NCBI GenBank assembly: GCA_964514975.1
Contig: CAZESS010000032.1
Span: forward strand, 1-13,247
Direction: 5' to 3'
Length of the DNA: 13,247 nucleotides
DNA from: an uncultured Thermoplasmatales archaeon
GTDB taxonomy: Archaea; Thermoplasmatota; E2; UBA202; DSCA01
The notes beneath the pieces are model-generated. The model did no database searches. It saw only the letters and a program-made list of their open reading frames with translations, and was not told the DNA's origin. The translations under genes and the position numbers were made by a program. Shown piece after piece: positions 1 to 11,939 of the stretch (position 1 is its first letter; every line of letters starts with the position of its first letter).

Positions 1-70
1 GGACCGGGGTGTAAGCAGCAAGCTTCGGCGAGCTGTTAAGCCCGCGGTTACTAACCGCTCGGCAGCTCTC
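1..70 (+). rRNA. rrl: 23S rRNA, 3' terminal fragment (runs off the window start; exact 3' end uncertain)
   Basis: GGGGTGTAAG-cagc..gc-TTCG-gc..gctg-TTAAGCCC..GGTTACTAAC matches the conserved last helices of LSU rRNA (GTGTAAG...TACTAA). A 5S gene follows immediately. Confidence 0.9.
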
Positions 71-110
71 GTTAAACAGATTGCGTATGCATTCACTCTC
101 AAAGGAAGGG

Positions 111-338
111 TTTGACGGCCATAGTGCTGGGGCAACACCCGGTCCCATCCCGAACCCGGAAGTTAAGCCTGGCACGTGATTCTGAGTACTATGGTGCGCG
201 AGCCCATGGGAAACGTACCCTCGAGAGAGGGCTTGGAACCACGGTTTAGGTGGAGAGCGCTGGTCGTTGTCCCTTCGGGGACCTTCCGGCGTAAACTTCA
301 CTGCTTGAAGACCGCGGATCCTCGGCTCGCTGTCAAAT
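111..338 (+). rRNA. rrf: 5S rRNA with a ~107-nt internal insertion (about 215-321)
   Basis: Canonical 5S motifs are present: GGCCATAG, ACACCCGGTCCCATCCCGAACCCGGAAGTTAAGCC, loop E AGTAC and helix IV ATGG-TGCGCGAG-CCCATGGGAAAC. The helix I 5' strand TTTGACGGC (111-119) finds its partner GCTGTCAAA only at 329-337. Segments 111-214 plus 322-338 total about 121 nt, the normal 5S length. Confidence 0.93.
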
Positions 339-5501: not shown

Positions 5502-5822
5502 ATGAGTGGACCGCGTGAGGAGACAGTCCGCGACGTCAGGTTGCCTGACCAGGACGAGGGTGAACTGTTTGCCGTAGCGGAGCAGCGGATGGGCGCCGGA
5601 CGGATAACGATTATCTGCGAGGATGCCATCGCCCGCATGGGTCGCATACGCGGCAAGATGAAACGCCGCGCCTGGATTCGCAGCGGCGACCTGCTCATCG
5701 TCCGGCCATGGGAGTTCCAGAACGAAAAAGCGGACATTCTGTACCGGTATTCGCCGACCGAAACCTCGCATCTGGCTCGCCAGCACAGGATACCGGAAAA
5801 CATAGATGTGTTTGAATCATGA
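5502..5822 (+). CDS. eif1a: Translation initiation factor aIF-1A
   Basis: VRLP..GE...MG..R..I.CED...R.GRIRGKMKRRAWIRSGDL.IV.PWEFQ..KADI.YRY is the aIF-1A signature. It is the first gene of the conserved aIF1A-RIO1-KH cluster. Confidence 0.95.
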   Translation: MSGPREETVRDVRLPDQDEGELFAVAEQRMGAGRITIICEDAIARMGRIRGKMKRRAWIRSGDLLIVRPWEFQNEKADILYRYSPTETSHLARQHRIPENIDVFES

Positions 5823-6538
5823 AATGGAGCACCGAGTCTGAGGATCTTTTATCCGGGAAAACGGAGGGAGAGGTATTCGAAAAAGCGACCTATGAGGCGC
5901 TGTACAAGCTCATGTCCCAGGGGGCCATCGAGGTCTTCGATTTTCCCATTTCGACGGGTAAGGAGGGCAACGTGTTCCGCGCCCGAAACCGGGATGGATA
6001 TGTGGCGGTCAAGATATATCGCCTCAGCACGTCCACGTTCCGCAACATTTCCAAGTATCTTGAGTACGACCGGCTTTCATCGGTGAAAAAAAACAGGCGG
6101 AGCGCCATCTTCGCCTGGGCCAACAAGGAGTTCCGCAACCTCGAGAGGCTCTGCGAGGCCGGCGTCCGCGTGCCAGAGCCGGTGGCGCACCAGGGAAACG
6201 TCATCGTGATGGAATACATCGGCAGCGCGGAGCGGCCGGCGCCGATGCTCAAGGACGCCGAGCTGGAAGCACCGGAGGAAACGTTCGATGCAATCGTGGC
6301 AGACATGTCGCGGATGTATCACACCGGCGGGCTTGTGCACGCCGACCTGTCGGAGTACAACGTGCTCTTTCATGAGGGGCCGGTCATCATCGACGTGGGG
6401 CAGATGGTGAAACGCGAGCATCCCATGGCCCGGTCGTTCCTGGAACACGACGTCGACATCCTGTCTCATTTTTTCAGCCGTTTTTTCTCGCTTGACCGAG
6501 ACGAAATGTTACAAGCTATTGTGGAGGAATCTGTATGA
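5819..6538 (+). CDS. rio1: RIO1 family serine/threonine kinase
   Basis: Motifs ISTGKEGNVF, VAVKIYR, WANKEFRNL, MEYIG, LVHADLSEYN and IIDVGQ. ATGA overlap with aIF-1A. Confidence 0.95.
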   Translation: MKWSTESEDLLSGKTEGEVFEKATYEALYKLMSQGAIEVFDFPISTGKEGNVFRARNRDGYVAVKIYRLSTSTFRNISKYLEYDRLSSVKKNRRSAIFAWANKEFRNLERLCEAGVRVPEPVAHQGNVIVMEYIGSAERPAPMLKDAELEAPEETFDAIVADMSRMYHTGGLVHADLSEYNVLFHEGPVIIDVGQMVKREHPMARSFLEHDVDILSHFFSRFFSLDRDEMLQAIVEESV

Positions 6539-7065
6539 AATATGTGAAAATACCGCGTGACCGGATTGCCGTGTTGGTCGGCAATGACGGGGAAACAAAG
6601 GAGGCAATAGAGACACATGACGTGATGCTGGACGTTGACTCTGAGACAGGGGAGGTGGCCATCCGGAGCGACGATGCCGTCGTGGAGCTCGACGCGCAAA
6701 GCGTCGTCCGGGCCATCGGCCGAGGGTTTTCGCCCGAGCATGCACTCCATCTTTTCGAGGATGACTACTATTTCGAGCTGCTGGACATGCGCGACTACGT
6801 GGGCAAGAAAAGCAAGGACGTGCACCGCATTGCCGGGCGTGTCATCGGCAAAAACGGTCGCTCCCGCCGTGTCATCGAGGACCTTGCGGGAGTGTATCTC
6901 TCTGTGTATGGTACCACGGTGGGGCTCATCGGACAGCCCCGCGGCCTCGACGTCGCCCTTGAGGCAGTGCGCATGCTGCTCAACGGTGCGGATCATTCAA
7001 CCGTGTTTCATTTTCTGGAGAAGGAAAAAAAGCGGATGAAGCTCGAGGAGTTCGGGTTGCGCTAG
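6535..7065 (+). CDS. KH-domain pre-rRNA processing protein (Dim2/Pno1/Krr1-like)
   Basis: IPRDRIAVLVG..GETK, AIGRGFSPE.A, GRVIGKNG..R..IE and ML.NGA.H..V. It has the conserved position after rio1, with an ATGA overlap. Confidence 0.9.
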   Translation: MKYVKIPRDRIAVLVGNDGETKEAIETHDVMLDVDSETGEVAIRSDDAVVELDAQSVVRAIGRGFSPEHALHLFEDDYYFELLDMRDYVGKKSKDVHRIAGRVIGKNGRSRRVIEDLAGVYLSVYGTTVGLIGQPRGLDVALEAVRMLLNGADHSTVFHFLEKEKKRMKLEEFGLR

Positions 7066-9291: not shown

Positions 9292-11838
9292 ATGCAATCC
9301 GATTTACAGGCATTCCTGCAGCTCGACTTCTTCCAGCAGCACGGATTCACCCGCAACCAATGCACCGAATGCGGCGCCCACTTCTGGACGACCAATCCCG
9401 AGCAGCAGCGCTGCGGCGACGCCCCCTGCGTCCCATACACGTTCATCGACAACCCGCTCGGCGACCATCCCTACACTGCATCGGAAATGCGCGAGGCCTT
9501 CCTCTCCTTCTTCGAGAACAACGACCATACGCGCCTCGACCGATATCCGGTCGTCGCCCGATGGCGCAACGACGTCTACCTCACCATCGCCTCCATCGCC
9601 GACTTCCAGCCCCACGTCACCTCGGGGCAGGTGCCACCGCCGGCCAACCCGCTCGTCATATCGCAGCCGAGCATCCGGCTCAACGACCTCGAGGAGGTCG
9701 GGCGGAGCGGACGCCACCTCACCATGTTCGAAATGATGGGGCACCATGCGTTCAACAACCACGACCAGATATACTGGAGCGAACAAACCATCCAGCTCTG
9801 CAACGACTTCCTCAAAAGCATCGGCATCCCCACCGACCAGGTCACCTACAAGGAGGGCGAATGGTACGGCGGCGGCAACGCCGGCGCCTGCCTCGAGGTC
9901 CTGGCTGCAGGCATGGAGATATCGACGCTGGTGTTCATGAGCCTCCAGCGCAGCCAGGATGGCACATACGAGGTCAACAACGAGCGATACACGAAGATGC
10001 CACTCCAGGTGGTCGACACCGGCTACGGACTCGAACGCCTCGTCTGGCTCACCCGGGGCTCCCAGACGGTCTACGACGCCATCTTCCCCGACGTCATCAA
10101 AGCCATCAGCGACGCAGCGGCAGCACCGCAGCCGCGTGACATCTACGCGCTGGCGGACCACACCCGCTGCCTCGCCTTCATGCTCGGCGACGGCATCGTG
10201 CCCAGCAACGCCGAAGAGGGATACCTCGCACGGCTGATAGCCCGCAGAGCGCTGCGATTCATCGACCGCCTCGAAATCGACATGACGCTCCCGAACATCG
10301 TCGACATGCATCTCGACCGGCTGGCAGATGACTTCCCCGATCTGCTCGAGGCACGCGAGACAATGCACGCGATGCTCGACAAGGAAACCACCAAATATGA
10401 TGAGACGCTGAACAGGGGTCGGCGGCTGGTCGCCCGCTACGTCAGGGAACATGGACAGGTACCGGAAAACAAGCTCATCCAGTTCTACGACACACATGGC
10501 GTGCCGCCCGACGTCGTCAAAGAGGTCGCCGGCGACGCCGTAGACATCCCCGACGACTTCGTGTCACGCGTCGCAGAGCTCCACAGCAACGCCCGGCAGA
10601 CAGCCGAGGAAACGCAGGAAAGCAAGTACAGCACCAGGCAGCTCTACTACGAGCAGCCATACCAGCGCAGCTTTGAAGCCACCGTCATCTGGACGGGCAC
10701 CGTGGAGGGCGATCCAGCGGTCATCCTCGATACAACGCTGTTCTACCCCGAGGGCGGTGGCCAGGCAACGGACACGGGCATACTCAGACAGGGCGACAAA
10801 GAGCGACGGGTGCTCCGCGCCGAAAAACAGGGCGACGCAATCGTTCACGTCCTCGACGATCCCCTCCCGGAGGGCAGCGTGGAAGGCACCCTCGAATGGC
10901 AGCGCCGCTACGACATCATGCGCCATCATACCGCCACACATCTCATCAACGCCGCAGCCCGGCACGTGCTCGGCGTCCACGTCTGGCAGAAGGGCTCCGC
11001 GCTCGACGACACCGAGGCACGGCTCGACGTCTCACACTACCAACGTATCACCCCCGGCGAGCTGCGGGACATCGAGGCAACGGCCAACGGATGGGTGCGC
11101 GACGCCCGGCCCGTAACAAAGCAGCAGCTCCCCCTGGGACTTGCAGAGCAGCGGTACGGCATGCGGCTCTACCAGGGCGGCCCCCCGGCAGGCAGCACCC
11201 TCCGCATCCTCGAAATCGAGGACATCGAGGTCGAAGCCTGCGGTGGCACCCATGTCGACGACACCGCCGAAATCGGCTGCATCAAAATCACGGGCACCGA
11301 GCGTGTGCAGGACGGCGTCGAACGCCTCAAGTTCAGGGCCGCAGAGCAGGCCATCGACTACATCAACCACCGCGACATGCTGCTACAGAAAACCGCCGAA
11401 ACGCTCGACGTCTCACCCGAGGTGCTCCCCCAGACCGTCCAGCGCTTCTTCACCGAATGGAAGGAACTGCGCAAGCAGGTCGAGGAGCTCCAGAAGCAAT
11501 CGATCAGCGCAAACGTCGAGGACTTCCACGGCATCCGCATCGTCACCCAGAACAACCTGGGCACCGCTGCGACCAGAGACATCACCGAGCAGGGGAACAC
11601 GGTCGTCATATCAAAGCGCATCGACGACGACACCGCGGCCATCCACATCGCCCGCTCACCCGGCATAGACCTGGACTGCGGTGCCATCGCCCGTGACATC
11701 GGCGGCATGCTCGGCGGCGGAGGCGGCGGCAAACCCGAGGTAGCACAGGCGGGCGGCCCCGATACGGAGGCGCTCGACGACGCATTTCAGCAGGCGATGT
11801 CCCTGGTCAAACAGCAGCTCAAAGAAAAACATTTATGA
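9292..11838 (+). CDS. alaS: Alanine--tRNA ligase, archaeal type
   Basis: Archaeal N-terminal CxxC...CGDAPC extension, RYPVVARWR, TIASIADFQP, FEMMGHHAFN, DTGYGLER and ADHTRC. The editing domain has HHTATH and CGGTH, and C-Ala has GGGGGKP..AQAGG. Confidence 0.97.
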   Translation: MQSDLQAFLQLDFFQQHGFTRNQCTECGAHFWTTNPEQQRCGDAPCVPYTFIDNPLGDHPYTASEMREAFLSFFENNDHTRLDRYPVVARWRNDVYLTIASIADFQPHVTSGQVPPPANPLVISQPSIRLNDLEEVGRSGRHLTMFEMMGHHAFNNHDQIYWSEQTIQLCNDFLKSIGIPTDQVTYKEGEWYGGGNAGACLEVLAAGMEISTLVFMSLQRSQDGTYEVNNERYTKMPLQVVDTGYGLERLVWLTRGSQTVYDAIFPDVIKAISDAAAAPQPRDIYALADHTRCLAFMLGDGIVPSNAEEGYLARLIARRALRFIDRLEIDMTLPNIVDMHLDRLADDFPDLLEARETMHAMLDKETTKYDETLNRGRRLVARYVREHGQVPENKLIQFYDTHGVPPDVVKEVAGDAVDIPDDFVSRVAELHSNARQTAEETQESKYSTRQLYYEQPYQRSFEATVIWTGTVEGDPAVILDTTLFYPEGGGQATDTGILRQGDKERRVLRAEKQGDAIVHVLDDPLPEGSVEGTLEWQRRYDIMRHHTATHLINAAARHVLGVHVWQKGSALDDTEARLDVSHYQRITPGELRDIEATANGWVRDARPVTKQQLPLGLAEQRYGMRLYQGGPPAGSTLRILEIEDIEVEACGGTHVDDTAEIGCIKITGTERVQDGVERLKFRAAEQAIDYINHRDMLLQKTAETLDVSPEVLPQTVQRFFTEWKELRKQVEELQKQSISANVEDFHGIRIVTQNNLGTAATRDITEQGNTVVISKRIDDDTAAIHIARSPGIDLDCGAIARDIGGMLGGGGGGKPEVAQAGGPDTEALDDAFQQAMSLVKQQLKEKHL

Positions 11839-11839
11839 A
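11822..11839 (+). promoter_or_regulatory. Probable tRNA promoter overlapping the alaS stop codon
   Basis: A-rich BRE-like AAGAAAAAC followed by TTTATGAA, ending about 27 nt before the tRNA 5' end. Confidence 0.45.
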
Positions 11840-11866
11840 CCACCTGTGTTTACCAGAGCACATACC

Positions 11867-11939
11867 GGGCCGGTAGATCAGTTGGAAGATCGTCTCCTTG
11901 GCATGGAGGAGGCCGTGGGTTCAAATCCCACCCGGTCCA
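11867..11939 (+). tRNA. tRNA-Ala (anticodon GGC), intronless, CCA not encoded
   Basis: Acceptor stem GGGCCGG/CCGGTCC with the G3:U70 Ala identity pair and discriminator A. Anticodon arm TCTCC-TTGGCAT-GGAGG; T arm GTGGG-TTCAAAT-CCCAC. Confidence 0.97.

Follow-up and report, generated by a model that had tools for sequence, protein, structure and literature searches.

The 13,247-nucleotide (nt) stretch analyzed here (the window; positions 1 to 13,247 of contig CAZESS010000032.1, assembly GCA_964514975.1) comes from an uncultured Thermoplasmatales archaeon and starts within a ribosomal RNA (rRNA) operon. Behind the 23S rRNA lies a 5S rRNA gene with a large insert in the 3' strand of helix V. We have found that this insert is a genuine, selected and apparently retained 5S expansion segment, new for Thermoplasmatota. 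The gene very probably encodes the organism's only 5S rRNA, with a constitutive expansion segment of ~104-107 nt, transcribed behind the 23S rRNA. A literature search for 5S expansions in Thermoplasmatota returned no description, in agreement with a preceding sequence-only reading of this DNA, which had regarded the segment as undescribed in this lineage.

The 5S rRNA gene and its boundaries

The Rfam 5S model (RF00001) matched window positions 111-226 with 76.7 bits (threshold 38). The 3' end of this alignment, comprising the last 15 model positions, was pushed onto unsuitable insert sequence and the helix I strand was misplaced. The true closure of helix I is between 111-119 (UUUGACGGC) and 329-337 (GCUGUCAAA), with 9/9 pairs formed. 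Hence, the locus is one gene of 227 nt, spanning 111-337 on the + strand and beginning 36 nt past the 3' end of the 23S rRNA gene. The sequence-only reading had proposed a 5S rRNA of about 228 nt with a normal fold up to GGGAAAC, and all of its coordinates held. The insert measures 104 nt (218-321) by the model and 107 nt (215-321) by the earlier bounds.

The archaeal 23S model (RF02540) aligned window 1-74 with model positions 2914-2987 of 2987 (44.3 bits, E = 1.1e-11), and the 23S-5S order was also seen in the genomes G008 and G009. The window's genome (G000, 98.9% complete) gave a single 5S match, on the expanded gene, which removed the objection that a second, normal 5S copy might exist. 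The three single-contig genomes (G109, G110 and G142) likewise had one Rfam 5S match apiece, located on the expanded gene. The concern that automated annotation could truncate such genes was justified, with the Rfam matches stopping ~120 nt in for the window's genome, five other genomes and Halococcus.

The features of the locus are given below, all on the + strand; A1 denotes the alignment of 60 distinct expanded 5S sequences.

1-74, +: 3' end of the 23S rRNA gene (RF02540), cut at its 5' end
111-337, +: expanded 5S rRNA gene (RF00001 plus helix I closure; 217-228 nt in relatives, 60 distinct sequences)
111-119, +: helix I 5' strand, pairing 9/9 with 329-337 (100% of cells paired in 60 sequences)
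111-214, +: canonical 5S core, from helix I via helices II-IV to the loop E 3' strand GGGAAAC at 208-214 (Rfam alignment; core helices 96-100% paired in A1)
218-231, +: short arm, 5-bp hairpin CCCUC-GAGA-GAGGG (A1 columns 109-113/120-124, 97.3% paired, two pairs changing on both sides; loop variable)
235-321, +: long unbranched arm with basal (235-245/311-321), middle (249-255/296-302) and next (257-263/286-292) stems and an apical hairpin (minimum free energy [MFE] fold plus covariation)
246-248, +: 5' side of an asymmetric internal loop, including the UA of the invariant UAGG at 247-250 (A1 invariant columns)
255-257, +: invariant GAG, with A256 bulged (A1)
269-282, +: apical hairpin GUCCC-UUCG-GGGAC, with the invariant cUUCGg loop at 274-277 (sequence and A1)
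291-296, +: near-invariant GUAARC facing GAG, with a G-U wobble at 257/292 followed by unpaired AAA (A1)
303-310, +: 3' side of the asymmetric internal loop, GCUUGAAG, with CUG.UUGAA invariant in 60 sequences (A1)
322-328, +: post-insert strand closing proximal helix V, register uncertain (columns 67-69/222-224, 96% paired)
329-337, +: helix I 3' strand, pairing 9/9 with 111-119 (100% of cells paired in 60 sequences)
338-400, +: T-rich trailer behind the 5S rRNA (direct reading of the sequence)

Structure of the insert and covariation

The short hairpin, the stems of the long arm and the apical hairpin that had been read from the sequence were all present, and the MFE fold of 215-321 reproduced them (-48.5 kcal/mol, z = -3.11, with 2/200 shuffles as stable). 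Folding of the whole 5S RNA gave z = -2.88. The folding energy is by itself modestly unusual, and covariation is the much stronger support. RNAalifold on A1 recovered the core plus most of the insert helices. We have scored a full structure of 74 pairs on A1: 95.4% of the cells were paired, as compared with 88.3% in shuffles and 31-46% in slid controls, and 40 of the 74 pairs varied on both sides, a count that none of 500 shuffles equaled. Paired cells in the long arm amounted to 83.5% for the basal stem (where nine of ten pairs changed on both sides), 100% for the middle stem, 94.6% for the next one and 98.3% for the apical hairpin. The proposed selection at the RNA level was thus borne out by covariation across 60 sequences.

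The unpaired motifs UAGG...GAG, GUAA.C and CUG.UUGAA, together with the UUCG loop, were invariant in A1. The sequence-only reading had taken two tetraloops and several G-U pairs as the sign of selection. Of the two, the UUCG loop is invariant; the loop of the short hairpin varies among species (UUAA, CUGA, UCAC, UUU and others), and GNRA is therefore not conserved. The long arm contains two invariant internal loops (UAGG/CUG.UUGAA and GAG/GUAA.C), which suggest a specific protein or RNA partner and not a mere spacer. The 3 x 8 internal loop was considered as a K-turn and dismissed by eye, the GA/AG tandem not being in register. The GAG/UAA loop of the long arm is one that we provisionally take to be akin to UAA/GAN-type motifs.

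Distribution within the class

We have searched the DNA of 197 genomes of the window's class, 103 of which gave a 5S match; from each genome the 5S genes were extracted and the helix I closure was sought. Two families carried expanded genes, of 217-228 nt with 9/9 helix I pairs. In the window's own family (f1), the expanded 5S rRNA was found among the matching genomes in G000, G001, G003, G005 and G009. In family f4, full-length expanded genes of 222-228 nt occurred in 54 genomes (55 distinct sequences). The gene was cut by a contig end or masked in four more (G059, G072, G073 and G147), and these incomplete genes still contained insert sequence, so that the insert is present in 58/58 f4 genomes with a match. 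Normal 5S rRNAs of 119-122 nt were found in f5, f6, f7, f8, f9 and f10 and also in f2, a family of the order that includes f1.

One f1 genome harbored, besides the full gene, an additional incomplete copy comprising the 3' half of the expanded 5S rRNA (G005:C128:8434-8560; L086, L207). It starts from GAGCCCATGGGA, includes the same downstream flank and lies ~2.4 kb downstream of the full gene, whose score it equals (74.1 bits with the covariance model R2, described below).

The "normal" 5S rRNA of G008 was considered as a polymorphism within the genus and dropped from the evidence, since it probably reflects a chimeric assembly joined at the conserved 5S core. At G008:C103:1-191 (L009), the 23S end, the spacer and the 5S core match the genus-mate G009 at ~96% up to GGGA and are unrelated beyond; helix I has only 7/9 pairs and the contig ends 88 nt further on.

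Distribution beyond the class

Outside the window's class, expanded 5S rRNAs were found in eight genomes of seven families. A blastn search of a 401-genome sample of the phylum gave insert-length matches in G273 (f43) and G216 (f21). Six more were picked up with a pattern based on length (core motifs, GGGAA, 90-120 nt, CGCTRTC), namely G213 and G258 (f25), G247 (f38), G212 (f24), G257 (f39) and G278 (f45). The match of the same pattern in G243 was false, being a normal 120-nt 5S rRNA with a chance downstream match.

The insert-only covariance model built from alignment A2 (R1) scored the out-of-class inserts at 88.9, 52, 28.5, 22.3, 22.0, 21.9 and 16.7 bits, each immediately 3' of the 5S core. 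A model rebuilt with out-of-class sequences added (R2) gave 36 bits on G213, which was outside its training set. When run on a sample of 151 genomes, R2 gave matches in 19, namely f1 (3/5 counting G000), f4 (9/9) and seven outsiders. With strict filters and many incomplete metagenome-assembled genomes (MAGs), its zeros in f2 (0/8), f12 (0/15), f15 (0/9), f17 (0/9) and f33 (0/15) mean that the insert was not found, not that it is absent.

A divergent insert subtype was seen in f21 and f25 (L166 in G216, L182 in G213 and L184 in G258), with a GGUAUAC/GUAUGCC stem and an UUAAGGGA loop. The architecture and the UUCG cap are kept and the conserved motifs differ. The presence of the insert varies at short range, between close relatives. 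In genus g93, G213 has an expanded gene (222 nt) and G243 and G327 have normal ones (120 nt), with GATCGCTGTCCCC ending all three; in f21, G216 has the expanded form and G206, which shares its core signatures, has two normal genes.

The expanded gene of G273 (G273:C2:30103-30326; L151, L157) was the sole one among 37 genomes of its class. The whole 5S rRNA, core included, is like the f4 type and unlike that of its class-mates, which could be explained by transfer or by a mis-binned 39-kb contig.

We have also scanned one genome per species (185,579 species) with an exact pattern for the invariant insert motifs. All but four of the 59 matching stretches came from records titled as Thermoplasmatales, Thermoplasmata, Thermoplasmatota, Euryarchaeota, Methanobacteriota or uncultured-archaeon MAGs, and none of the 59 was a halobacterial record. 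These titles agreed with the earlier assignment of the host to Thermoplasmatota. The matches in Berkelbacteria and Daviesbacteria records were due to chance (9.6-14.3 bits with R1 and R2). A 2,183-bp contig of a MAG titled "bacterium" held a full 225-nt expanded archaeal 5S rRNA of the f4 type (L128:1266-1367, R1 99.7 bits); it is a true copy, and the contig is probably mis-binned. The record name SM1-50, which we take to denote Marine Benthic Group D/DHVEG-1, is filed by NCBI under unclassified Thermoplasmatales.

Evidence from RNA libraries and habitat

We have inspected the assembled contigs (not raw reads) of four salt-lake metatranscriptome runs from three studies. In all four runs, one contig was unbroken through the insert (window 110-336 in X16, 134-343 in X19, 142-336 in X18 and 145-326 in X15). 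All four bridged 214/215 with more than 31 letters on either side, and no joint of 214 to 322, which would have pointed to an excised intervening sequence, was reported in the contigs of these runs. Positions 85-98 and 350-420 had no cover in the four runs, and three contigs ended at 336-343; as a sign of processed ends, these gaps and contig ends are at most a weak hint.

The 5S rRNA in these runs is 97-98% identical to that of the window and the runs are labeled salt lake, so that the window's genus occurs at least in saline lakes. The description of the lineage as apparently non-halophilic is hence not established for the genus. Crude open reading frames of at least 300 amino acids had a median isoelectric point of 5.38 and a (D+E)/(K+R) ratio of 1.39; as this set includes spurious frames, the acidity of the proteome tells nothing firm on halophily. 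Runs X1-X14 were labeled microbial mat, tidal flat, hypersaline lake, sediment or oil facility, and these labels were not used as evidence.

Comparison with Halococcus and other expansions

Prokaryotic 5S expansions have been surveyed in RefSeq genomes, 5SrRNAdb and Rfam by Stepanov & Fox (2021; PMC7812874). That survey lists archaeal expanded 5S rRNAs only in Halococcus, Halalkalicoccus, Halomarina and Halodesulfurarchaeum (15 strains). Their insert of 108 nt falls between core positions 104.1 and 105, in the stretch from loop E to the three-way junction, and takes the form of an asymmetric V, one arm being a short hairpin and the other long and unbranched. The main text of the survey does not contain the words Thermoplasma, metagenome, uncultured or Candidatus. 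According to the cryo-electron microscopy study of Halococcus morrhuae by Tirumalai et al. (2020; PMC7530397), the insert is retained in the ribosome, forms a four-way junction with the core preserved and has a flexible arm.

The 5S rRNA of Halococcus dombrowskii, which Rfam likewise cuts short, is 231 nt long (L149:396-626). Its insert lies, as in the window, in the helix V 3' strand at GGGAAA + 4 nt, and the insert and total lengths are 108 and 231 nt there versus 104-107 and 227 nt here. Both segments begin with a short hairpin (CCUC-GCAA-GAGG there, CCCUC-GAGA-GAGGG here) followed by a long arm at a four-way junction (predicted here), and both carry an 8-nt 3' internal loop at the matching place (GUUACAAC in Halococcus, GYUUGAAR here). 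The expanded form is also the sole 5S type of the genome in either case. They differ in the host, Thermoplasmatota versus Halobacteria, and in the invariant loops particular to the f1/f4 type and its invariant UUCG cap. The segment is also much more widely spread here, with 63 species-level genomes in one class plus eight elsewhere as compared with 15 halobacterial strains. In H. dombrowskii H4, identical 23S-5S units with the expanded 5S rRNA are located on two replicons filed as plasmids (NZ_CP095007.1 and NZ_CP095009.1; L149 and L150), and neither rRNA is in the distributed feature table.

The same survey describes bacterial 5S expansions in Thermoanaerobacterales, Halanaerobiales, Clostridiales and Alteromonadales (PMC7812874). 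These resemble the segment studied here in being structured and patchy, with the core fold intact and close taxa with or without the insert. They differ in lying at other sites, having other shapes, being mostly shorter and often standing beside normal 5S genes in the genome. Large lineage-specific rRNA expansions from MAGs of uncultured archaea are also said to occur in Asgard archaea, where Penev et al. reportedly described eukaryote-like expansion segments in 2020; those are in the 23S rRNA and the present one is in the 5S rRNA.

Interpretation and alternative explanations

The expansion interrupts the 3' strand of helix V four nt after the GGGAAA of loop E and so divides this helix into distal and proximal parts, with the short hairpin and the UUCG-capped long arm emerging between them. 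The multi-way junction foreseen from the sequence is accordingly modeled here as a predicted four-way junction that would leave the canonical core intact, and by analogy with the H. morrhuae ribosome the arms should be directed away from the central protuberance, into the solvent. We infer that the RNA is incorporated into ribosomes with this outward orientation and that it may engage a partner.

Several points weigh against this interpretation. The junction register is ambiguous, as had been anticipated: the distal pairing 70-72/104-106 was 81% paired overall and poor in the window's genome, the alternative register of the sequence-only reading, 73-77/217-221, reached 70% and lacked its central pair in 54/60 sequences, and neither register is clearly correct for the window's genome. 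The RNA-library contigs reach only 5-22 nt past 321/322, below the 31-letter bridging standard, in a gene that ends 16 nt past that junction, at 337. With T183C, C214A and one additional T behind 266, they show the variants of the genus-mates G001 and G003 and therefore derive from a close relative and not from the window's genome. Since DNA may be present in RNA libraries and contigs lose rare variants, they neither demonstrate transcription nor rule out rare spliced forms.

Introns can occur in archaeal rRNA genes, and the insert could be an intron or intervening sequence whose removal would leave a normal or fragmented 5S rRNA, a possibility favored to some extent by the RNA evidence coming from contigs instead of raw reads. 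Against it, the contigs of 4/4 RNA runs ran unbroken through the insert with no joint, its size and loops are kept across 60 sequences, which covary over the full length of the arm, and the Halococcus counterpart is described as retained in the ribosome; we thus consider removal very unlikely. Where a bulge-helix-bulge motif would mark an intron boundary, the fold supported by covariation has a predicted four-way junction. The partial copy in G005 and the chimeric appearance of G008 at the same spot could point to a 5S gene decaying into a pseudogene or to a chimeric assembly. This explanation is barely credible for a gene that is the sole 5S rRNA in the window's genome and in three single-contig genomes, that has all core helices intact and that is represented by 60 distinct full-length sequences from many independent assemblies.

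How the segment relates to that of Halococcus is less clear. The sequence-only reading had suggested an independent expansion, which is doubtful given the close match in site, length and architecture; since the segment is of the Halococcus architectural kind, independence is not the safest reading. A single origin, by ancient descent with many losses or by lateral transfer of 5S 3' halves, has in our view close to an even chance. Besides the shared offset, length and 8-nt loop, the tree-edit distance between the f1/f4 covariation structure and the Halococcus MFE structure was 29, as compared with 78.2 +/- 15.5 in shuffles (minimum 39, 0/1000 as close), and the reverse test gave a shuffle minimum of 31 (0/1000 as close). 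The best R2 match in L149 sat exactly on the insert (504-607, model 1-102) with 10.4 bits, and pairwise alignments of the H. dombrowskii and f1 inserts gave z = 3.1 and 4.1 (2 and 0 of 500 shuffles as good). Within the phylum, inserts that covariance models alone link to the rest score down to 16.7-28.5 bits and have other motifs in the conserved loops, with UUAAGGGA in f21/f25. Against this stand the failure of R1 to match L149 or L150 at E <= 10 and the R2 score, which corresponds to E = 3.2 and lies under noise matches of 13-14 bits; homology with the Halococcus insert is therefore not established. The short hairpin accounted for most of the pairwise signal, the long arm by itself being not significant (z = 1.1-1.6), the exact-pattern scan gave no halobacterial record, and the comparison is based on a single halobacterial sequence.

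Independent origins are also quite conceivable, if somewhat short of an even chance: one solvent-exposed site on helix V would accept inserts in both lineages, the easiest fold for them being a hairpin and a long arm. This would agree with hosts in different phyla, with the lack of significant sequence or covariance-model similarity and with the absence of the invariant f1/f4-type motifs from Halococcus. It fits poorly with an identical offset, a near-identical length and internal loops matching in order and size, a likeness that 0 of 2 x 1000 shuffles approached. A bolder scenario, which we regard as rather unlikely, is that the Thermoplasmatota and Halococcus expansions are one mobile homologous 5S module, gained and lost within a genus and crossing phyla via recombination of 5S 3' halves, perhaps in saline habitats shared with haloarchaea, with the invariant loops docking a dedicated partner on the central protuberance.

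Whatever its origin, a kind of segment that among archaea had been described only from four haloarchaeal genera is now the rule in f4, a family of uncultured archaea from sediments, and is found in at least eight more families of the phylum. The 60 or more diverse covarying sequences give a sharper definition of its secondary structure than was possible from the subnanometre Halococcus map. Standard 5S annotation ends these genes at ~120 nt with a false 3' end, which affects rRNA calls in MAGs. The existence of close relatives with or without the insert, together with the likeness to Halococcus, allows a direct test of how an rRNA module is gained and lost and whether it moves laterally.

Other genes of the window

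The genes downstream of the 5S rRNA are ordinary and encode an ExoIII-like nuclease, PAS histidine kinases, a RIO kinase, a KH protein, SRP54 and AlaRS, along with tRNA-Ala. At 5819-7065, the RIO kinase gene overlaps by four bases the following gene for a KRR1/Pno1-like KH-domain protein, forming a small-subunit biogenesis pair. At 9292-11939, the alanyl-tRNA synthetase gene is followed, after a gap of 28 nt, by tRNA-Ala(GGC).
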